Virus record (IMG/VR): IMGVR_UViG_2802429244_000016 | Reading direction: 5' to 3' (one strand) | DNA: 15,574 nt | Source of the DNA: a virus | Lineage: Duplodnaviria; Heunggongvirae; Uroviricota; Caudoviricetes | In this document: positions 1,370 to 15,574 of the stretch, piece after piece | Position numbering within the stretch: the first letter of the stretch is position 1 | Layout of the letters: each line of letters starts with the position of its first letter | The notes under the pieces: model-generated | Told to the model about the DNA's origin: nothing | What the model saw: the letters and a program-made list of their open reading frames with translations, nothing else | The model's database searches: none | Program-made: the position numbers and the translations under genes

Positions 1370-1445
1370 GCCGATATAGCTCAGTTGGTAGAGCAGCGCA
1401 TTCGTAATGCGAAGGTCGTAGGTTCGACTCCTATTATCGGCACCA
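1370..1445 (+). tRNA. thrW: tRNA-Thr, anticodon CGU (thrW-type), including 3' CCA
   Basis: GCCGATATAGCTCAGTTGGTAGAGCAGCGCATTCGTAATGCGAAGGTCGTAGGTTCGACTCCTATTATCGGCACCA: 7-bp acceptor stem, D-loop AGCTCAGTTGGTAGAGC, anticodon loop TTCGTAA, T-arm GGTTCGACTCC. The proA-thrW order matches the known E. coli island insertion hotspot. Confidence 0.95.
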
Positions 1446-1610: not shown

Positions 1611-2825
1611 GTGAAACTCAATGCCCGTCAAATAGACACAGCTAAGCCAAAAGAGAAGGCTTACAAGCTGGCCGATGGTGGCGGTTTGTATCTCTTGGTA
1701 AAACCTAATGGAGGTAAATACTGGCGACTTAAATATCGTGTAGCTGGTAAAGAGAAGCTATTGGCACTAGGTGTTTATCCTGAGGTTACTCTAGCCGATG
1801 CTCGGGCAAAACGTGAAGATGCGAAAAGAGGTATCGCTGGTGGTATCGATCCGATGGAAGCGAAACGAGAGGAAAAGATTGCCCGGGAAACGCAGTTAAA
1901 CAACACCTTCAAAGATATTGCCCTTGAGTGGCACAGCAGCAAATTAAAAAAATGGTCTGCTGGTTATGCTTCAGACATCCTCGAAGCCTTCAACAAAGAT
2001 GTGTTCCCTTACATTGGCAAAAAACCCATCGCCGAAATCAAACCACTTGAACTTCTGAATGTGCTGCGTCGCATCGAGGGGCGCGGTGCTACAGAAAAAG
2101 CCAAAAAAGTGAGGCAACGGTGCGGGGAAGTTTTCCGCTATGCAATAGTCACTGGTCGCGCAGAGTATAACCCTGCACCAGACCTTACTAGCGCGATGCA
2201 AGGCCATGAATCTAATCATTACCCTTTCCTTACAGCCAAAGAATTACCTGATTTTTTCAAGGCATTGTCCAGTTACTCAGGAAGCGCATTGGTTGTTATG
2301 GCGGCTCGTCTACTGATTATCACCGGCTTGCGGACTGGCGAACTACGTGGCGCATTATGGGATGAAATTGATTTCAACAAGGCTATCTGGGAGATACCCG
2401 CTTCACGTATGAAAATGCGGCGGCCTCATATTGTGCCATTGTCTGAGCAGGCTCTTTCGCTTATTGGGAAGATTAGAGAAATAACAGGCAATTACCCTCT
2501 TATGTTTCCCGGGCGCAATGATCCAAGGAAAACAATGAGCGAGGCCAGCATAAACCAAGTGTTTAAGCGCATTGGCTACGCTGGACGTGTAACTGGTCAT
2601 GGGTTCCGGCACACTATGAGTACGATTTTGCATGAGCAGGGCTATAACACTGCGTGGATAGAAACGCAGCTCGCTCACGTTGATAAGAACTCAATTCGTG
2701 GCACATACAACCATGCGCAATATCTGGATGGAAGGCGGGAGATGCTTCAATGGTATGCCGACTATATGGATTCTCTCGAGCATGGCGGAAATGTGGTGCA
2801 TATGGTGTTTGAAAAACACGCATGA
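1611..2825 (+). CDS. int: Tyrosine site-specific integrase, P4/CP4-57 IntA family (GTG start)
   Basis: 404-aa ORF. N-terminus MKLNARQIDTAKPKEKAYKLADGGGLYLLVKPNGGKYWRLKYR is typical of P4-type integrases; the C-terminal catalytic region has R (LRTGELRGALW), HGFRHT and the nucleophile Y in RGTYNH. Located immediately 3' of a tRNA. Confidence 0.93.
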   Translation: MKLNARQIDTAKPKEKAYKLADGGGLYLLVKPNGGKYWRLKYRVAGKEKLLALGVYPEVTLADARAKREDAKRGIAGGIDPMEAKREEKIARETQLNNTFKDIALEWHSSKLKKWSAGYASDILEAFNKDVFPYIGKKPIAEIKPLELLNVLRRIEGRGATEKAKKVRQRCGEVFRYAIVTGRAEYNPAPDLTSAMQGHESNHYPFLTAKELPDFFKALSSYSGSALVVMAARLLIITGLRTGELRGALWDEIDFNKAIWEIPASRMKMRRPHIVPLSEQALSLIGKIREITGNYPLMFPGRNDPRKTMSEASINQVFKRIGYAGRVTGHGFRHTMSTILHEQGYNTAWIETQLAHVDKNSIRGTYNHAQYLDGRREMLQWYADYMDSLEHGGNVVHMVFEKHA

Positions 2826-2898
2826 AACAACTGGACAAGTATACAGAGGTTTACTAAAGTATAAGGGAGTAGATTGATAAAAACTCACAGAGGATTGC

Positions 2899-3214
2899 TA
2901 TTTAACAGTTAGCCATGGAGAAGGGCAATCGCTCTTTTAACAACGAAGATGGAATCTTCTACGCAGCTGAAAAGCTGGATGCTCTTTAACAGCCTTTGGT
3001 GCTTTCCTGATGCAGGAAAGAATAGGGATACATGCACCTTTACAATGCATGTAATGATTCATCCATGAGGCTGCGGAGCGCTGACAAAGCGCAATTGCTC
3101 TTTAACATTGATGTGGGCGGGATGGTTCGTCCCGCAGTGACCGATAGATTTCTATCGGGAAACATACAATGATTCAAATATGAATCTACGGCGCTGACAA
3201 AGCGCAATTGCTCT
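2899..3214 (+). repeat. Repeat-rich int-alpA intergenic region: exact 24-bp direct repeat GCGCTGACAAAGCGCAATTGCTCT twice, plus 3-4 copies of a CTCTTTAACA-like motif
   Basis: Identical 24-mers at 3078-3101 and 3191-3214, each with an internal hairpin GCGCT-GACAA-AGCGC. CTCTTTAACA-like copies at 2931-2942, 2981-2991 and 3098-3107. Hairpin GCGGGATGGTTCGTCCCGC near 3117-3135. Confidence 0.55.
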
Positions 3215-3476
3215 CTTGCCTGCCCACCATGCCCTGAAAAAGGGCGTTCTTTAAAACTACTGGATGTCACGCCTAATAGCGTGATCCTGCCGAAATGCAG
3301 GGTAGCTCTACCCTTGTGGAGCAAACAAACCAAAACAATCTGACTATCTTTTATAAAAGACCGCAATATGTTTTTCATATTGTGGTCTTTGGCGTATTCG
3401 ACATTTGACGCAAATAAAACTCTCGCCATTCGTTGCAGGAGGGGGTTATTGCGTCATTAGTACAGGATATTAATAA

Positions 3477-3680
3477 ATGGCTAATTACAATTCATTAATT
3501 CGTCTCTCTGAAGTTCAAAGGCGAACTGGTTATAGCAAAGCATGGATTTATCGTCTTATTAGTCAGGGGAGGTTCCCTAAACAGGTAAAAATTGGAAGTC
3601 GGGCTATTGCTTTTGTTGAGTCTGAAATAGATGAATGGATTGAGAAGTGTATATTAGAATCTAGAGACGAGGTGGCCTGA
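3477..3680 (+). CDS. alpA: AlpA-family phage/satellite transcriptional regulator (excisionase-like winged-helix DNA binding)
   Basis: 67-aa protein MANYNSLIRLSEVQRRTGYSKAWIYRLISQGRFPKQVKIGSRAIAFVESEIDEWIE, the classic AlpA motif pattern; positioned just downstream of the P4-type integrase. Confidence 0.85.
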   Translation: MANYNSLIRLSEVQRRTGYSKAWIYRLISQGRFPKQVKIGSRAIAFVESEIDEWIEKCILESRDEVA

Positions 3681-4957: not shown

Positions 4958-5132
4958 GCCAACAGGAATACCACAACCTCAAAAACGCTACAAAGATGCC
5001 CACGGAGCACTCGTTACTGTCGAAAGCGTGTCTCACAACCGAGTGACGTTTTATCGCGACGGGTATCAATCGCCATGCGTACAACCGCTGGCGCGCTTCA
5101 TGAAGGAGTTCGCGGAGGTTAACAAATGCTAA
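4950..5132 (+). CDS. Small hypothetical protein (60 aa; DUF4222-like by recollection)
   Basis: ATG at 4950 preceded by GGAGG (4939-4943) and overlapping the upstream stop; MSKPTGIPQPQKRYKDAHGALVTVESVSHNRVTFYRDGYQSPCVQPLARFMKEFAEVNKC. The ORF track's 4863 start lacks an RBS. Confidence 0.55.
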   Translation: MSKPTGIPQPQKRYKDAHGALVTVESVSHNRVTFYRDGYQSPCVQPLARFMKEFAEVNKC

Positions 5133-5563
5133 CCGCCCAGAAGAAGACATTTTCACTGGCTGGCATGTCGCCAAAATCCAGCAATATGACAGCAAAGTCA
5201 GGCATTAATACAGCAGATACAAGCAAAGTTTATCATTTGCTGGTGGTAGGAGCGGATGCCTTAACTATGTCAGAAATCACGGTCGATGGTGTTAGCGTTG
5301 AGAAGGTCAGCGGCTGCGCCAGAGAATTTCTGGTCGTAGATCACCTGTTCTGCTCGTGTAGTGACTCCACAAAAACATTCGTCCACGCGCGTGACGTTAA
5401 CGAAATGAGCGCGATGTACTGTGCTTCTGGTTCTTCCAATAGTGAGTTTTCGGAGTCCATAAAAAAGAGCTTGCCGTTATGCGGCAACACGGTTTATGGT
5501 TATAAGGCACCTCATAAAACGGGTGCCGGGTTTCGCAGCCCGGAAATGTACGAGGCGACACAT

Positions 5564-5584
5564 GACGCGCCGAGCGTCTTTTTT
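5564..5584 (+). terminator. Candidate intrinsic terminator (short GC stem plus T6)
   Basis: GACGC-GCCGA-GCGTC followed by TTTTTT (5579-5584). Stem is only 5 bp, so this is weak. Confidence 0.35.
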
Positions 5585-5594
5585 TGTGCCGTTA

Positions 5595-5632
5595 GCCAGA
5601 CTCACACTTTTTTCAGTGATGTGGTTATAATC
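5595..5632 (+). promoter_or_regulatory. Candidate sigma70 promoter for the small-ORF/primase operon (perfect -10 TATAAT at 5625-5630)
   Basis: GTGATGTGGTTATAATCCGCG; no convincing -35 hexamer (CACACT-like at about 5602-5607). Lies downstream of the candidate terminator and upstream of the structured leader. Confidence 0.35.
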
Positions 5633-5639
5633 CGCGTCG

Positions 5640-5788
5640 CTTGCAAAATTATGGTGGGCTGGACAGGGCAGCCGAAAGGCTGGCCGGTTTCCTTGTACGC
5701 CGGTACTGCGAACTCTGTTCAGTCCACCACCAGCGAGTTTCGCAGCTCCGGTGGTGGGAAGAATTCCCAGTACAAGGAGGCTGCCACA
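5640..5788 (+). ncRNA. Structured 5' leader / candidate regulatory RNA upstream of the primase operon (possible P4 CI-RNA-like immunity element)
   Basis: GNRA hairpin CAGCC-GAAA-GGCTG (5668-5681); 8-bp stem CCACCACC (5723-5730) / GGTGGTGG (5749-5756) presenting loop TTTCGCAG; single-stranded CTGCGAA (5706-5712) complementary to that loop; an upstream hairpin CCGGG-TTTCGCAG-CCCGG (5526-5543) presents the same loop sequence. Confidence 0.4.
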
Positions 5789-5982
5789 TGCTGGCTACTA
5801 CCCCTACCCAAAAACCGCAATTTATCTGGATTATCGCCGCAGTTCGCCGCGATTGCCAGACAATTACCGCCAAAATTCATCATATTGCTGCCGAGTCTGA
5901 ACGCGATGCTCGCCGTTCTCTGGTGCGCGATCACGTCTGCTTTTTTGCTGGTCGTATCCGCATGGAGGTGGCACATGATTAA
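5789..5982 (+). CDS. Hypothetical small protein (64 aa), first gene of the coupled operon
   Basis: Strong RBS AGGAGG (5775-5780) 8 nt before the ATG at 5789; MLATTPTQKPQFIWIIAAVRRDCQTITAKIHHIAAESERDARRSLVRDHVCFFAGRIRMEVAHD. Confidence 0.55.
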
Positions 5983-6193
5983 AACCTACGATGTGCATAT
6001 GGATCCCCTCGAACGCACAAGCCAGATCATCACACTGACAGAGGTGATTAATGACATTCTGGTGAGCAACTCTCCCTCACGAGACGAAAAACTGAAGGCG
6101 TTACTCGCGATATTGGATCTCGCCGTTCGTGACGTTCATTTCCTGCTGGAAGGTGGACAAATGCCATGCAAAACGGGGGCAACCAATGAATAA
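5975..6193 (+). CDS. Hypothetical small protein (72 aa)
   Basis: ATG at 5975 preceded by GGAGG (5964-5968) and overlapping the upstream stop; MIKTYDVHMDPLERTSQIITLTEVINDILVS... The ORF track shows this frame open from 5126, but the upstream part lacks a start context. Confidence 0.5.
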   Translation: MIKTYDVHMDPLERTSQIITLTEVINDILVSNSPSRDEKLKALLAILDLAVRDVHFLLEGGQMPCKTGATNE

Positions 6194-7805: not shown

Positions 7806-8169
7806 AAATGCAGAAATGGCGCTTAGCTCCGCAATCGGAGAGCAGGTGGCAAAGATTGCTGGTGCTGTGTGGATTCATAACCTTCATTCTACTGGTGAAG
7901 AGAAAATGGCAATTCAGACGCCAGAGGGACGCACCATTACTACATCTCTGAAGCCGTCAGATATTTGTGATCTGATTTGCACATTCATGTACCCAGCAAT
8001 GAGGACTGTCCACGGCGATAAGTGGAAACTTGCGACAACCGCTGAATTTGATATGTGGCTAAACAATGATGGCATGCTGACTGATTACGGAATAACCAAG
8101 TGGCAGATGCTGGTTAGCCATATCGCAAACGCTATAGACCACGTGGGGTACGGTGATGCGAAACATTGA
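7798..8169 (+). CDS. Hypothetical protein (123 aa)
   Basis: RBS GGAGG (7788-7792) then ATG at 7798, overlapping the upstream stop; MRENAEMALSSAIGEQVAKIAGAVWIHNLHSTGEEK... Confidence 0.6.
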   Translation: MRENAEMALSSAIGEQVAKIAGAVWIHNLHSTGEEKMAIQTPEGRTITTSLKPSDICDLICTFMYPAMRTVHGDKWKLATTAEFDMWLNNDGMLTDYGITKWQMLVSHIANAIDHVGYGDAKH

Positions 8170-10912
8170 TCTTATCCGTCAGGTTATCAGTGCGTCTGAA
8201 AACAACTGGCCTCATGTGCTGGGCTGCCTGAACATAAATGTCCCTGACTCTCCGCGCCGTCATGCTCCCTGCCCTGCATGTGGGGGCAAAGATCGATTCC
8301 GGTTCGATGACAACGGGCGCGGTAGCTTCATCTGTAATCAGTGCGGCGCTGGTGATGGGCTGGATTTAATTAAACGCGTAAATAACTGCGACACAACAGA
8401 GGCGGCGCTTCTTGCCGCTGATGTTCTGGGTATTGATTACCGGACAACGGAAACACCAGAAGCCACCAGCCAGAAACGGGAACAACAGGAAACCGAGCGC
8501 CAGCGACGCGAACAGGAGCGCCTGAAAAGGGCAGAGAAGGACGAACAACAAAGACGGGATACGTTTTCCCGTCAGTTTGATGACATGCGCAGAAAGGCTG
8601 TAAACGGCAAATCTGATTATCTGGTTGCGAAAGGGGTAGGTGATTTTACATTCCCCGTGTTGCCCGATGGATCTCTGTTGCTGGCGCTGGTGGATAAATC
8701 CGGCGCAGTAACAGCAGCACAGACTATTACCTCACATGGTGAAAAAAGACTCCTGACAGGTTCAGCAAAGCGAGGGGCATATCACGCCATAAACGCACCA
8801 GAAACAACACAGAGCATCTTAATCGCAGAAGGGCTGGCAACGGCATTATCTGCCCATTTAATTCGTCCAGAGGCGCTGACAGTGGCGGCGATTGATGCCG
8901 GGAACCTGTTATATGTCGCCCAGGTACTGCGGGATAAATTTCCTTCAGCACAAATCATCATTGCTGCGGATAACGACCACAGCGAAGGAAGACAAAACAC
9001 GGGGAGAATAGCAGCAGAAAAGGCAGCTTTATCTGTTTCTGGATGGGTGGCATTACCCCCGACAGATCACAAAGCAGACTGGAATGATTACCACCAAAAA
9101 CACGGCATTAAATGCGCCACAGAAGCGTTCAATAAGTCAATGTACCAACCACAGGGTAATGGCGTGAAACAGGAGCCACAGACCATTGAGGGAAGCGATT
9201 TTAAGGTTATGGATACCGACCCACTGAAACCAAGAATAGAAAGCCGCGAGGATGGTATTTATTGGGTATCTCCGAGAGCTGACAGCCAGAGTGGAGAAAT
9301 CATCAATAACGAAAGCTGGTTATGTTCTCCGTTAAGCGTTATCGGTACTGGCAGAGACGATAAAGACCAGTATCTCATTCTTCGCTGGCTGTCGTTTGGT
9401 TCTGAAACGCCGACAACCGCTGCCATTCCACTGGCTGATATTGGTGAACGTGAAGGATGGCGCACACTTAAAGCTGGTGGGGTAAATGTCACGACCAAAA
9501 GCAGCCTCAGAGCAATACTGGCAGACTGGCTACAACGCAGTGGCTCTCGTGAATTGTGGCGTGTTGCTCATGCCACTGGCTGGCAATGCGGAGCGTACAT
9601 CATGCCTGATGGGGAAATCATCGGAACACCTGAAAATCCTGTGCTGTTCAGCGGGAGAAGCTCAGCCGCAGCCGGATATACCGTCTCAGGGAGCGCGAAA
9701 AGCTGGCGTGATAACGTGGCGCGTCTGGCCTTTGGTAACTATTCAATGATGACCGGGATCGGCGCAGCACTGGCAGCGCCATTGATTGGGCTGGTGGGCG
9801 CTGACGGGTTCGGCATTCATTTCTATGAGCAGTCGAGCGCAGGTAAGACCACCACGGCAAACGTGGCGAGCAGCTTATACGGCAACCCTGATTTACTGCG
9901 GCTGACGTGGTACGGAACCGCGCTGGGGCTGGCAAATGAAGCCGCCGCCCACAATGACGGACTAATGCCGCTTGATGAAGTTGGTCAGGGCGCTGATCCT
10001 GTCAGTGTTTCACAGTCTGCCTATGCGTTATTTAACGGTGTAGGGAAACTGCAAGGTGCTAAAGATGGTGGAAACCGGGATCTAAAACGCTGGCGTACAG
10101 TGGCAATCAGCACCGGAGAAATGGATTTAGAAACATTTATCGCTACTTCCGGGCGAAAAACCAAAGCCGGGCAACTGGTGCGACTGCTGAATATTCCGTT
10201 GAGTAAAGCAGTACGCTTTCACGATTACCAGAACGGAAAACAGCACGCAGACGCACTGAAAGACGCTTACCAGCATCACCACGGCGCAGCCGGGCGTGAG
10301 TGGATTAAATGGCTGGCAGACCACCAGCAACAGGCTATTAAAACTGTTCGTGACTGCGAAAGCAGATGGAGAAGCCTGATTCCATCCGATTATGGTGAGC
10401 AGGTTCACCGTGTAGCCGCGCGATTTGCCATTCTGGAGGCCGCATTGCTGTTAGGCGAGGTTGTAACAGGCTGGGATGCTCAGACATGCCGTGATGCGAT
10501 ACAGCACAGCTATAACGCATGGTTGCGCGAGTTCGGCACAGGTAACAAAGAACATCAGCAGATTATTGAACAAACGGAGGCATTTCTTAATGCCTATGGG
10601 CTTAGCCGTTTTGCACCATTTCCATACAGCCCGGCAGATTTGCCAATCAAAGATTTAGCCGGATACCGTCAGCGTGGAGAACATGACGAAAGCCCAATGA
10701 TTTTCTACACATTCCCGGCCACATTTGAAAAGGAGATCGCATGTGGTTTCAACGCAAAACAGTTTGCTGAAGTGTTGAAAAAAGCCGGGATGCTAACCCC
10801 ACCAAACAGCGGTCGTGGATACCAAAGAAAATCACCACGTATTCAGGGACGACAAATAAACGTTTATGTACTCAATTACCAGCCAGGAGATTACAACTCA
10901 TCTGAAGAATGA
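8153..10912 (+). CDS. Bifunctional DNA primase/helicase, P4 alpha-like (zinc-ribbon + TOPRIM primase N-terminus, P-loop NTPase C-terminus); functionally the pri-rep of a satellite
   Basis: 919 aa. Cys4 zinc ribbon CPACGGKDRFRFDDNGRGSFICNQCG; TOPRIM-like IAEGLATALS and IIIAADNDHSEGRQNTG; Walker A FYEQSSAGKTT. Start is GTG 8153 or ATG 8156, overlapping the upstream gene. Confidence 0.9.
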   Translation: MMRNIDLIRQVISASENNWPHVLGCLNINVPDSPRRHAPCPACGGKDRFRFDDNGRGSFICNQCGAGDGLDLIKRVNNCDTTEAALLAADVLGIDYRTTETPEATSQKREQQETERQRREQERLKRAEKDEQQRRDTFSRQFDDMRRKAVNGKSDYLVAKGVGDFTFPVLPDGSLLLALVDKSGAVTAAQTITSHGEKRLLTGSAKRGAYHAINAPETTQSILIAEGLATALSAHLIRPEALTVAAIDAGNLLYVAQVLRDKFPSAQIIIAADNDHSEGRQNTGRIAAEKAALSVSGWVALPPTDHKADWNDYHQKHGIKCATEAFNKSMYQPQGNGVKQEPQTIEGSDFKVMDTDPLKPRIESREDGIYWVSPRADSQSGEIINNESWLCSPLSVIGTGRDDKDQYLILRWLSFGSETPTTAAIPLADIGEREGWRTLKAGGVNVTTKSSLRAILADWLQRSGSRELWRVAHATGWQCGAYIMPDGEIIGTPENPVLFSGRSSAAAGYTVSGSAKSWRDNVARLAFGNYSMMTGIGAALAAPLIGLVGADGFGIHFYEQSSAGKTTTANVASSLYGNPDLLRLTWYGTALGLANEAAAHNDGLMPLDEVGQGADPVSVSQSAYALFNGVGKLQGAKDGGNRDLKRWRTVAISTGEMDLETFIATSGRKTKAGQLVRLLNIPLSKAVRFHDYQNGKQHADALKDAYQHHHGAAGREWIKWLADHQQQAIKTVRDCESRWRSLIPSDYGEQVHRVAARFAILEAALLLGEVVTGWDAQTCRDAIQHSYNAWLREFGTGNKEHQQIIEQTEAFLNAYGLSRFAPFPYSPADLPIKDLAGYRQRGEHDESPMIFYTFPATFEKEIACGFNAKQFAEVLKKAGMLTPPNSGRGYQRKSPRIQGRQINVYVLNYQPGDYNSSEE

Positions 10913-11493: not shown

Positions 11494-11673
11494 ATGGCTA
11501 TTTCAGTAAAGCCAGTATTGATAAGTGAGAAGCAAATGGAAGCGATAAAGAAAATTCAGGAAGAGCAGCGTAAAAAATCAGAGGTAGGAGTTGCGCCAAC
11601 GATCCATGAAATTGCTCGGGGATTAATGGATAAGGCGCTGACAATACACGCAAAAATGAAGGTGTCTGCATGA
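11494..11673 (+). CDS. Small hypothetical protein (59 aa), translationally coupled to the 604-aa gene
   Basis: Not in the supplied ORF track (below its length cut-off). RBS AAGGGGG (11482-11488) then ATG at 11494; TATAAT at 11455-11460 upstream; stop TGA overlaps the next ATG (ATGA). MAISVKPVLISEKQMEAIKKIQEEQRKKSEVGVAPTIHEIARGLMDKALTIHAKMKVSA. Confidence 0.5.
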   Translation: MAISVKPVLISEKQMEAIKKIQEEQRKKSEVGVAPTIHEIARGLMDKALTIHAKMKVSA

Positions 11674-13484
11674 TTATCAATGAGTTGGCCTACAAGGTCA
11701 CAATTAAGGCCGATGAATTCCTGAATGGAAAACGGAAAGTAAAAGATGAAGTTAGTAAATTAAACAAAGATCTTTCCAGGGCTGAGAAGGAAAGGTTAAA
11801 GGAACTTGAAAAACAACGGCAGGAAATGGAGAAGTTCAGTAAAAACGCTGTTTCAGCTTTCCGCAACGTGACAACAGCAGCCGCTGGATTTTTGGGAATC
11901 GGCGCTGGGTTGTATGGAATCAAGCAACTTTTTACATCTACCGTCAACGAAATCGTGAGAGCCAGTCAACAGGCCAAGTTTTTCGGTTCTGATGTTAATA
12001 AGATGTTTGGTGTTCAGCGGGGATTTCGTCAGGCTGGTCTTAACGGTGACTCGTTCATTTCATCTTCTGGGAATGCCAGAATGGCTTTGGCAAATATTGC
12101 CGATCCAACTGTTATGGGAGGGCTTACTGGCGCTGCCCAAAATTTGCTGGTTCTTGGCGCTCGCACCGGATTAGATATCAATAAGCTCGGTGACCCAAAC
12201 AAGGCTCTTGCTGAGTTTTCTCGCTATGGCAAGACTCATTCTCAAGAAAACCTGATGCAGGTGATGGCTGCCGCAGGGTTCGATCCGACAGATGCCGCTA
12301 AAATAAAATCAGGGGAACTTAAGCAGCTTGTCGATTCAGAAACAAAGAAATCCCGTATTACCGCACAGCAGGTAAAAGAGCAGGAGAAGGTTGCCGCCAC
12401 TCTTGGTCAACTTGATTCAGAGTTTTCCCGATTAAAGCAAAATTTAGCCATGGCATTTGCTCCTGACGTTATTGACGGAATGAAGGCTTTTGGTTCCTGG
12501 ATTGAGAAACATCATGGCGACATCATTGGCTTTTTCAATGACGCCGGAAATATGACGAAGCAATTCACAAAGGCAGTTGGTGGTGCGGAAGAGGCTCTGA
12601 AACTATTGGCAGCAGCATATGTAGGAAGCAAACTTACAGGCGGCGCCCTTCCTCCATGGTTGGCTGGGTTAATAGCATATGGTTTGTATCTCTACAATGA
12701 CAGGGAAAACATTGAGGGTGCAGCTAAAGGATCGTTTGATTACTCTAAGCGTGAACTTGGAGATACCATGCGCAGCATGGGGTTTGACACCGATTTTGGG
12801 CGTAGGGGAGATGAGATTTATGGCAATAACATTCAGCCAGATATCCCTCTCCCTGACGGAGTAAAGCCAGTAAGCATGGATTCTCTCCTTGACGCCATTC
12901 GTGAGGTGGAATCGAGTGGTGGTAAAAAACTTTATAGCCCGAAAGGTGCTGTTGGTCCGTATCAGTTCATGAAGGATACTGCCATAGCGTACGGGTTAAA
13001 GGTCGGGGATGGGATTGATGAGCGCCTTGATGAGGTGAAATCTCGCGCTGCTGCTGAAAGGTTCATGAGGGATTTGCTAAAGCACTATAAAGGCAATGTT
13101 AACCATGCGCTGATGGCTTACAACTGGGGGATGGGCAATGTAGATAAAAAGTTAAAATACATATCCAGTACCGGGTTTGATTCACCATCATCCAAATACT
13201 GGAACACCTTACCGAAAGAGACGCGAGAATATGTGCCAAAGATTCGCGCAGCTCTTAATGCAAAAGAAAACGAGACGCTGGCTTACTATCAGCAGCAGCA
13301 ACGCATCGCCTCAACACCAAGCCAGACAACATCAAAAATTGACAACAGCCGTAGCAGCAGTACAACTATTGGCACGGTTGTTGTTAACAGTAACCCGACA
13401 ACAGTTGATGCTCTTACCAGAAGTGTCAATCAGCAAGTTAGCCGGGTGTCAACAAACGCGGCATTTTCTAGTGCCGTTAAGTAG
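11670..13484 (+). CDS. Coiled-coil, membrane-associated protein with C-terminal lytic transglycosylase (SLT/lysozyme-like) domain and Q/S/T-rich tail; tape-measure or injection-protein-like architecture
   Basis: 604 aa. N-terminal K/E-rich coiled coil (about aa 20-60); hydrophobic segments AAAGFLGIGAGLYGI and ALPPWLAGLIAYGLYLY; SLT signature about aa 404-490 (nt about 12879-13140): DAIREVESSGG, GAVGPYQFM, ALMAYNWGMGN. Tail YYQQQQRIASTPSQTTSKIDNSRSSSTT. Confidence 0.8.
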   Translation: MIINELAYKVTIKADEFLNGKRKVKDEVSKLNKDLSRAEKERLKELEKQRQEMEKFSKNAVSAFRNVTTAAAGFLGIGAGLYGIKQLFTSTVNEIVRASQQAKFFGSDVNKMFGVQRGFRQAGLNGDSFISSSGNARMALANIADPTVMGGLTGAAQNLLVLGARTGLDINKLGDPNKALAEFSRYGKTHSQENLMQVMAAAGFDPTDAAKIKSGELKQLVDSETKKSRITAQQVKEQEKVAATLGQLDSEFSRLKQNLAMAFAPDVIDGMKAFGSWIEKHHGDIIGFFNDAGNMTKQFTKAVGGAEEALKLLAAAYVGSKLTGGALPPWLAGLIAYGLYLYNDRENIEGAAKGSFDYSKRELGDTMRSMGFDTDFGRRGDEIYGNNIQPDIPLPDGVKPVSMDSLLDAIREVESSGGKKLYSPKGAVGPYQFMKDTAIAYGLKVGDGIDERLDEVKSRAAAERFMRDLLKHYKGNVNHALMAYNWGMGNVDKKLKYISSTGFDSPSSKYWNTLPKETREYVPKIRAALNAKENETLAYYQQQQRIASTPSQTTSKIDNSRSSSTTIGTVVVNSNPTTVDALTRSVNQQVSRVSTNAAFSSAVK

Positions 13485-15286: not shown

Positions 15287-15574
15287 ATGATAAGGGACAG
15301 GAAAGCTGAAGAGCTGGAGTCAAAAGGGCTATACCGGAGAGCTGCCGCACGATGGGCAGAAGTCATGATGCTGGCAGATGGCGATAAAGAACGTGAACAT
15401 GCAGCAAACAGACGCTCTGAATGTATCCGTAAGGCGGCACGCCCACCAGCAACTACAGACAGATTCGGAGATTTAAGACAGGCAGTTAAGCGGACTCATT
15501 CGGCTCTTGGTATGGATGAGGAAGCGAGAGGGTACTTCAGGCGTTATCGCGATAAAGATTGCCAGAGACAGTAA
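15287..15574 (+). CDS. PerC-family transcriptional regulator-like protein (95 aa)
   Basis: RBS GAGAGG before the ATG; MIRDRKAEELESKGLYRRAAARWAEVMMLADGDKERE... matches the conserved PerC/Pch N-terminal pattern as I recall it; the stop TAA is the last codon of the window. Confidence 0.65.
   Translation: MIRDRKAEELESKGLYRRAAARWAEVMMLADGDKEREHAANRRSECIRKAARPPATTDRFGDLRQAVKRTHSALGMDEEARGYFRRYRDKDCQRQ

Follow-up and report, generated by a model that had tools for sequence, protein, structure and literature searches.

In Staphylococcus aureus pathogenicity islands (SaPIs), Stl is derepressed by phage proteins, and P4 is activated by Cox and Ogr of P2. Both satellites stay off until one particular early product of the helper is made, different alleles or satellites sense different helper proteins, and a repressor or promoter is recognised through contacts between proteins or between protein and DNA. 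Induction of Gram-negative phage-inducible chromosomal islands (PICIs) requires AlpA, and transcription of alpA answers to the helper phage and not to SOS, the phage inducer being unnamed as of 2018 (PMC11773190, PMC6092414). For one such island, EcCIMP1, induction and packaging depend on the helper phage Kapi1, and a reporter covering -449 to +50 of alpA responds to Kapi1 even when alpA is deleted; that region is treated as the 'alpA promoter', with nut, boxA and boxB unmentioned (PMC11773190, PMC6092414). Here we describe the corresponding spacer, between the integrase gene int and alpA, in an EcCIMP1-family satellite contained in a 15,574-nucleotide stretch of DNA (IMG/VR record IMGVR_UViG_2802429244_000016; hereafter, the window). 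The spacer carries about eight modules built like the N-utilisation (nut) sites of lambdoid phages. We propose, with a probability of roughly 0.65, that this orphan array of several specificities in the alpA leader lets the N protein of a helper antiterminate transcription into alpA. The proposed logic is that of Stl and P4, whereas the means would be a cis-acting RNA which captures the antiterminator of the helper.

The cis-acting put RNA of HK022 forms a two-stem structure in the leader and makes polymerase termination-resistant without a protein factor. The satellite spacer is likewise proposed to be a cis-acting antiterminating leader RNA; the structure of put is different, however, and put needs no protein. 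Rfam 15 recorded nothing in 2800-3500 at gathering score, and only two chance-level enterovirus matches (E of about 0.4-0.5).

A closer comparison is with the nut sites of lambda, P22, phi21 and H-19B/933W. These have the same boxA and boxB sequences as the satellite array, are likewise co-oriented with the downstream operon, and lie between promoter and terminators, both of which are predicted in the satellite. Spacing equals that of lambda nutL in module 1, modules 3 and 5 come near the spacing of their phage counterparts, and homology to 933W nutL extends over 48 nt of one module. The two differ in that a phage has two sites of one specificity together with its own N, whereas the satellite packs some eight modules, with five or more specificities, into 390 nt. 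A Pfam scan of the 20 open reading frames (ORFs) of the window found neither N_peptide (PF25694) nor any other antiterminator family; since no N gene lies within the window part of the satellite, the nut sites here are orphan. The leader of rrn operons is also alike in its identical boxA, in having a hairpin immediately 5' of boxA (as in the repeat described below), in a GU-rich TGTGGG after one boxA, and in being long and untranslated. The rrn boxB, however, is dispensable and not phage-specific, whereas the satellite hairpins copy phage boxB, occur in many modules, and precede a predicted intrinsic terminator and a regulatory gene instead of rRNA.

Published sequences provide the references for these assignments. 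The lambda boxA is CGCUCUUA, the rrn boxA UGCUCUUUA(ACAA) and the lambda nutR boxB GCCCUGAAAAAGGGC (PMC2724277), while GCGCUGACAAAGCGC is the 15-mer boxB RNA bound by the N peptide of phage P22 (PMC11480772). The int-alpA spacer is 651 bp long, and its elements, with the flanking genes, are as follows.

1611-2825, plus strand: int, the satellite tyrosine integrase gene (Pfam Arm-DNA-bind_3, Phage_int_M, Phage_integrase)
2832-2860, plus strand: promoter-like block TGGACA, 17 nt, TAAAGT, 7 nt after the int stop, predicted start about 2867 (consensus scan)
2896-2926, plus strand: nut module 1; boxA variant TGCTATTTAACA (2896-2907), 4 nt, 15-nt hairpin GCCATGGAGAAGGGC
2930-2977, plus strand: nut module 2, H-19B-type; boxA variant CGCTCTTTTAACAA (2930-2943), dyad GAAGAT-GGA-ATCTTC (2945-2959), CUACG, boxB CAGCU-GAAA-AGCUG (2964-2977)
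2980-3020, plus strand: nut module 3, matching an L205-type nutL; exact boxA TGCTCTTTAACA (2980-2991), 10 nt, hairpin CUUUCCUG-AUG-CAGGAAAG
3030-3052, plus strand: hairpin ACAUGCA-CCUUUACAA-UGCAUGU of the minimum-free-energy fold, for which no counterpart was found
3048-3101, plus strand: nut module 4; diverged 933W-type unit ending in the P22-type boxB GCGCUGACAAAGCGC (3078-3092) and holding repeat copy 1 (3078-3101)
3096-3158, plus strand: nut module 5, matching an L222-type nutR; exact boxA TGCTCTTTAACA (3096-3107), 11 nt, boxB GGGAUGGUUCGUCCC (3119-3133; extended stem 3117-3135), second hairpin CCGAUAGAUUUCUAUCGG (3141-3158)
3161-3214, plus strand: nut module 6, homologue of 933W/H-19B nutL; dyad GAUUCA-AAUA-UGAAUC (3171-3186), CUACG, boxB GCGCUGACAAAGCGC (3191-3205); holds repeat copy 2 (3191-3214)
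3209-3245, plus strand: nut module 7; boxA-like TGCTCTCTTGCC, 10 nt, boxB GCCCUGAAAAAGGGC (3231-3245), identical to the lambda nutR boxB, -10.8 kcal/mol
3245-3284, plus strand: tentative nut module 8, invariant in all alleles; boxA-like CGTTCTTTAAAAC (3245-3257), 9-10 nt, hairpin UCACGC-CUAAUA-GCGUGA
3286-3301, plus strand: hairpin CCUGC-CGAAAU-GCAGG, with a compensatory CCCGC/GCGGG in L312 and L313; a phage counterpart was searched for and not found
3306-3350, plus strand: C-rich, G-poor stretch (C/G 2.3, by composition), a possible Rho-utilisation site
3356-3390, plus strand: terminator-like hairpin T1; 15-bp stem, loop UUUUU, -20.8 kcal/mol, then UCUUUGG
3477-3680, plus strand: alpA, encoding the 67-aa master activator of the PICI cycle (Pfam PF05930), identical in protein sequence to EcCIMP1 AlpA WP_000035054.1

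A preliminary description of the window, made from its letters, had singled out a 24-bp direct repeat, a small hairpin in each copy, and reiterated words among GC hairpins, all of which we recovered. The repeat, GCGCTGACAAAGCGCAATTGCTCT, occurs exactly at 3078-3101 and at 3191-3214, 113 nt from start to start, and such an exact repeat inside 651 bp is not due to chance. Each copy opens with the hairpin GCGCU-GACAA-AGCGC (5-bp stem, 5-nt loop, -8.5 kcal/mol, z about -3.5); the likeness continues for about 30 nt upstream (72% identity between 3048-3079 and 3163-3194), and a third copy with 71% identity lies at 2912-2935. Words of the type CTCTTTAACA, two of them exact and three variant, and GC hairpins surround the repeat; in the spacer these words are confined to the plus strand, with none on the minus strand. 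By their match to the published P22 boxB and to boxA, the 24 nt are a P22/933W-type boxB of 15 nt, AAU, and the first six bases of the next boxA.

Both parts of a lambdoid nut site are found in known form. For boxA, defined as CGCUCUUA or UGCUCUUUAACA, the array has two exact copies of TGCTCTTTAACA, which is the rrn/P22-type boxA, and three close variants; for boxB it has the exact P22 and lambda nutR sequences and three more types which match phage nutL or nutR. The distance from the start of boxA to boxB is 16-23 nt in the array modules, as in phages, and the hairpins fold. Patterns for P22-type and lambda-type boxB gave four matches against 0.6 expected, a number reached in none of 200 shuffles, and the spacer RNA as a whole is much more structured than its shuffles (z = -7.4), with some 13 local hairpins. 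Matches to the 11-mer with up to two mismatches are not enriched across the window (7 observed, 4.8 expected), yet both copies without a mismatch, and four of the seven matches, lie on one strand of a 360-nt stretch here.

The phage counterparts are clearest in module 6, where 48 nt (3161-3208) have 94-96% identity by BLAST to 92 records of Shiga toxin (Stx) and other lambdoid phages, 933W and H-19B included. Several of these records annotate exactly this counterpart as nutL, downstream of OL1/OL2, and in an O157 prophage it falls between the OL/PL region and N. The same 48-mer explains several hundred of 664 matches in E. coli genomes. Module 1 has 16 nt from the boxA start to boxB, as in lambda nutL (PMC2724277), and a pentaloop of the GNRNA type. 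The layout of module 2, with its dyad, CUACG and boxB, is shared with 933W nutL and with the nutL of the CFT073 icd prophage, where boxA, dyad, CUACG and UGGCUGAAAAGCCA (UGGCU-GAAA-AGCCA) are followed by N; in alleles L086 and L089 the loop of the module 2 boxB is GACAA instead of GAAA. The boxB 15-mer of module 7 is also present in an unrelated satellite, L269.

Three further hairpins of the array occupy true nut positions in phages which encode N_peptide (PF25694) proteins, with similar spacing (20-23 nt from the boxA start): one in the CFT073 icd prophage, as above, and the others in L205-type and L222-type phages. The L205-type prophages (10 IMG/VR contigs) have, in order, cI, the PL region, CAGCTCTTTAACAA, 7 nt, CCTACCTGATGCAGGTAGG and a gene for an 82-aa N_peptide protein, and their nutR, after cro, shares the CCUG-NNN-CAGG core. 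As the gapped pattern TCTTTAA..CCTGATGCAGG gave mostly chance matches, only the 10 with the extended stem and a full boxA were retained. Module 3 also occurs in satellites L150 and L067, with different lower stems. For module 5, the L222-type phages (29 IMG/VR contigs) have CGCTCTTTACAC, 10 nt, GGGATGTTTCGTCCC and a second hairpin, a nutR site which L222, the contig examined, carries between cro and cII; the nutL of L222 consists of boxA, 10 nt and GGGGATGATTCGTCCCC, upstream of the N gene of the phage. Module 5 differs from these sites only at a loop base which also differs between the nutL and nutR of L222 itself, and its hairpin recurs in satellites L007, L098 and L150.

Two phage sites deserve mention in their own right. 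The boxB classes CCUG-NNN-CAGG (with its extended stem; L205, 3090-3130) and GGGAUGNUUCGUCCC (L222, 7915-7955) are found in many prophages beside N_peptide genes, and we know of no characterisation of either. The second hairpin of the L222-type nutR, CGCAUCGACCGAUGCG, is conserved.

Module 8 resembles the phi21-type sites of Kapi1, which encodes a phi21-type N protein and canonical boxA and boxB nut sites; the comparison was with its nutL and with its nutR, which reads TGCTCTTTAACA, 10 nt, UCACCU-CUAACC-GGGUGA. The stem of module 8 is kept in L312 and L313 through a G.U pair. A search of IMG/VR with the exact hairpins CACGCCTAATAGCGTG and AGGGTAGCTCTACCCT returned no phage nut counterpart, and the phi21-type assignment is tentative because the exact hairpin of module 8 was absent from every phage nut site searched. 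Judged by these matches, the array modules are copies of nut sites from at least five or six lambdoid specificity classes, namely lambda, P22/933W/H-19B, the GAAA-loop class of the CFT073 icd prophage, CCUG-NNN-CAGG, GGGAUGNUUCGUCCC and possibly phi21.

Several observations suggest that it is RNA, and not DNA, which is under constraint: stems covary, G.U pairs are tolerated, and every module is on the plus strand. Across modules and lineages, pairing reaches 97% in the 5-bp boxB stems, which show five double-sided changes, and none of 500 shuffles matched the observed paired fraction, covariation score or number of double-sided changes. The dyad of module 2 (GAAGAU/AUCUUC) is GAAGG/CCUUC in the short allele, the stem at 3286-3301 alternates between CCUGC/GCAGG and CCCGC/GCGGG, stems at the position homologous to module 1 covary in L007, L098 and L268, and the T1 stem exchanges C-G for U-A and G.U for A-U among lineages. 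Of the candidates raised in the preliminary description, a small RNA was the nearest, since the signals act at the RNA level.

The invariant 3' half of the leader (3246-3476) was found in 279 of 5426 complete E. coli genomes (about 5%), while 32 E. coli genomes hold the whole of the long-allele insert and 11 hold part of it. Leaders of 391/392, 427/428, 543, 642 and 651 bp were observed. They differ by whole nut units, with junctions within the repeated CUACG-boxB-AAU-boxA units, and at one position the loop alternates between GAAA and GACAA. Where alpA is the same and int nearly identical, the element mostly has the 427-bp allele, to which the rarer long allele adds the CCUG-AUG-CAGG, GGGAUGGUUCGUCCC, second 933W-type and lambda nutR-type modules. 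The preliminary description had held that absence of the repeats from such relatives would speak against their function. The duplication is indeed mostly missing, as the commoner 427-bp allele holds one copy, and is thus not itself conserved; the type of module is.

The layout TGGACA-17-TAnnnT after int is found in Pantoea septica (L007), Yokenella (L020), the IMG/VR loci L098, L150, L262, L268 and L269, and a second E. coli lineage (L312, L313). All of these also share the 17-nt spacer of the promoter block and have a plus-strand-only boxA array following it, interleaved with the same types of hairpin. A Providencia satellite (L067) also has the array, although its promoter block does not align, so that arrays are known from satellites of E. 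coli, Pantoea, Providencia and Yokenella. The predicted promoter block upstream and the predicted terminator T1 downstream, which flank the array, are both conserved across genera. A T1-type hairpin is kept about 110 nt before alpA in five lineages, with stronger U tracts in lineages other than that of the window. L269 has an exact lambda boxB and, behind it and immediately ahead of alpA, two strong intrinsic terminators.

Four further features of these leaders were noted. The 17-nt promoter spacer AGTAnACAGTAGTGaTC (2838-2854) is conserved across genera (L007, L150, L262, L268, L269) beyond what a promoter needs, and may be an operator for AlpA or another regulator. An inverted repeat, TGACGCAAATAA / TTATTGCGTCA (3406-3417 and 3446-3456), flanks the 50 nt that lead up to the ribosome-binding site of alpA and could be either a protein-binding palindrome or a structure sequestering the start region. 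An extra gene stands between the array with its terminator and alpA in some satellites, encoding DUF6387 in L161 (1419-2312), L268 and L020 and being an unassigned ORF in L150 (about 1760-2370); such genes would share the proposed N-dependent control. Finally, in E. coli SW07164 (L314, 1-371), an IS3 element replaces int and the 5' part of the leader, while the array is kept from the first P22-type boxB to alpA.

The mechanism that we propose is as follows. The spacer would be the untranslated leader of the rightward operon of the satellite, transcribed from the promoter-like block behind the int stop (start about 2867), and the nascent RNA would present the eight or so boxA and boxB modules in order. 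Without a helper, transcripts would end in the C-rich stretch or at T1, before reaching alpA. On infection by, or induction of, a lambdoid or P22-like helper, N, its first early protein, would bind the cognate boxB, and host NusB/NusE on boxA, with NusA and NusG, would complete a termination-resistant RNA polymerase. This polymerase would continue into alpA and probably through a termination-based C4/CI-RNA immunity region further downstream (5507-5734), which it would be expected to override because that immunity works by termination. AlpA would then boost its own expression and start excision and replication. Several boxB types would give access to a wider range of helpers, and recombination between the repeated units would generate alleles with different boxB repertoires.

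In its fullest form the proposal makes the leader a multi-specificity sensor, in which the N proteins of at least five lambdoid classes license read-through of the terminator into alpA and then of the P4-type immunity, N is the phage inducer of this PICI family, and gain and loss of boxB set the helper range. We would put this fuller version a little above even odds. The published EcCIMP1 reporter spans the entire 427-bp leader allele, and its induction by Kapi1 is consistent with the model, though not proof of it, since the Kapi1-like hairpin of module 8 differs from that of the phage and is absent from the phage nut sites searched.

A number of observations weigh against the proposal. The link between N and the leader, like transcription from about 2867 and the role of N as the induction signal, is one that we infer from the sequence features described above. 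The promoter-like block matches the consensus at only 9 of 12 positions, and the U tract of T1 is weak in the window, where a simple terminator scan did not call it. The lambda-like boxB stem of module 1 is broken in the window by a C-to-A change, other alleles carrying GCCCUGGAGAAGGGC. The module 8 hairpin differs in two of six loop bases from the boxB of Kapi1, the one proven helper, and within the 24-nt repeat boxB stands 3 nt before a boxA, as in rrn, and not after it.

Distribution imposes a further limit. When 160 loci of AlpA relatives from GTDB genomes and IMG/VR were scanned, about 150 lacked the array, most of their spacers being only about 230 bp, so that the sensor mechanism can hold for a subfamily at most. 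The spacer of EcCICFT073, the model Gram-negative PICI, also lacks boxA and boxB, though lambda and phi80 induce this island. We therefore discarded the notion of an array shared by all Gram-negative PICIs. In the int-alpA spacer of EcCICFT073 (L273, 9161-9525, in CFT073), (G)AACAAC and GACACAA words stand in runs along the strand of alpA, and these AACAAC-type repeats are a candidate for a different helper sensor.

Among the alternatives, an unlikely one is antitermination by host factors alone, as in rrn operons. Here boxA would recruit NusB/E/A/G (and SuhB) and shield an untranslated, structured leader of about 600 nt from Rho, such that transcripts from the promoter or reading through from int reach alpA, with the hairpins incidental or structural. 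The two boxA copies identical to the rrn consensus, the long untranslated leader with its C-rich stretch, and the order of elements, in which a hairpin lies 3 nt before boxA in the 24-nt repeat and TGTGGGC follows boxA (3108-3118) in a manner that recalls the boxB-boxA-boxC of rrn, would all accord with this. It leaves unexplained, however, the exact or nearly exact match of the hairpins to boxB elements of at least five phage N systems, the 48-nt homology to a phage nutL, and the helper-specific induction of the EcCIMP1 reporter. Moreover, complexes of the rrn type are not known to pass intrinsic terminators like those of L269.

A role as decoy is less probable again. The leader RNA would then titrate the N of incoming lambdoid phages and delay their early genes, in helper interference or host defence, rather than serve primarily as a switch for alpA. 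Many boxB types in multiple copies are what such a decoy would display, but titration requires abundant leader RNA, for which the promoter match is weak, and it has no need of a conserved terminator with alpA directly downstream. Either of these two functions could coexist with the proposed sensor.

We regard it as very improbable that the repeats are DNA-level sites for Int, AlpA or an excisionase, or operators, which is where the preliminary description had looked for their function. It proposed integrase arm-type or recombination-directionality sites and AlpA binding sites. In favour of such a reading, the direct repeats, 10-24 bp long, are close to int and alpA. Activation by AlpA of its own promoter in EcCICFT073 lends such sites some plausibility, as does the conserved spacer of the promoter block, which could be an operator. 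Arm-type sites, however, would be expected within about 200 bp of the att core (1429-1438), and the array lies 1.4-1.8 kb from it; the words are identical to known RNA elements and strictly confined to one strand, and the stems covary and use G.U pairs, which matter only in RNA. EcCICFT073, where autoactivation by AlpA was demonstrated, carries quite different repeats. The broader expectation that so ordered a spacer would be functional and not junk has held, while its specific DNA-site proposals are not supported.

That the modules are inert scars of lambdoid immunity regions, as the near-identity of a 48-nt block to 933W nutL (suggestive of recent transfer) and the decay of some modules (window module 1; L312) might hint, or that the region encodes a minus-strand protein, is hardly credible given at least five phage classes in one orientation and in the same order across genera with covarying stems, where a single scar would leave one nut site with flanking phage genes. 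The protein in question is WP_248699324.1, a 129-aa hypothetical product which PGAP/RefSeq calls on the minus strand at 3040-3429, across the nut array. It belongs to no Pfam family, and in the commonest allele the frame shifts such that the same start yields 71 aa with a different C-terminus; it was rejected as a gene for these reasons, and the call is probably spurious. The spacer had been described earlier as non-coding, which conflicts with the annotation as it stands.

How Gram-negative PICIs detect their helpers has been an open question since 2018, and the nut array offers a concrete answer for the EcCIMP1 family, the helper N. The parts are already known; their deployment in a satellite, and an inducer whose identity can be tested, appear to be new. 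Our literature searches returned no relevant paper connecting PICIs or satellites with nut, boxA, boxB or antitermination. The 'AlpA antiterminator' of P. aeruginosa is a different, Q-like protein which shares the name by coincidence, and was set aside. If the proposal is true, it would add an RNA-based mode of helper-phage sensing, and no earlier satellite would have been shown to owe its induction to helper antitermination hijacked through orphan cis-acting RNA sites. It would likewise explain how one satellite can use many unrelated lambdoid helpers, Stx phages among them, make helper range predictable from sequence, and provide a natural catalogue of boxB classes.

The wider setting of the leader agrees with that of EcCIMP1, with which comparison was made via the MP1 chromosome sequence. 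The source replicon of the window is an E. coli chromosome, with proA and then tRNA-Thr(CGU) at left. The same tRNA-Thr beside proA, the same att core, TCCTATTATC, and the identical AlpA place the element in the EcCIMP1 family of Gram-negative PICI satellites, and int, alpA and the primase-replicase gene all point rightward on the plus strand, in the gene order of Gram-negative PICIs. The remaining features are these.

1370-1445, plus strand: thrW, tRNA-Thr(CGU), the integration site (ARAGORN, Rfam)
1429-1438: att core TCCTATTATC, the same as that published for EcCIMP1
Downstream of alpA, plus strand: AntA/Bro and Ash-family genes, carrying Rfam C4 and isrK RNAs
8153-10912, plus strand: primase with Zn-ribbon, Toprim and DUF927
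11670-13484: SLT-domain protein of 604 aa, in the late region of the window
15287-15574: PerC-family regulator gene, in the late region of the window

Downstream of alpA, Rfam matches to isrK (5507-5584, 69 bits) and to the C4 antisense RNA (5647-5734, 81 bits) lie inside an ORF (5126-6193) annotated as 'ash family protein'. By these matches, 5507-5734 is a P4-type CI-RNA immunity region inside the Bro zone of the PICI. The window thus resembles P4 in having a C4 family RNA and isrK; a link between this immunity and nut sites is only suggested here. P4 itself is released from repression by functions of P2 and is not known to carry nut sites.

In the late region, at the place corresponding to the SLT-domain protein, SCU-172 and EcCIMP1 annotate DUF2824, to which the EcCIMP1 annotation adds a phage DNA ejection protein of the kind known from P22. 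Such gene content would fit a P22-like (Lederbergvirus) helper, Kapi1 for example.

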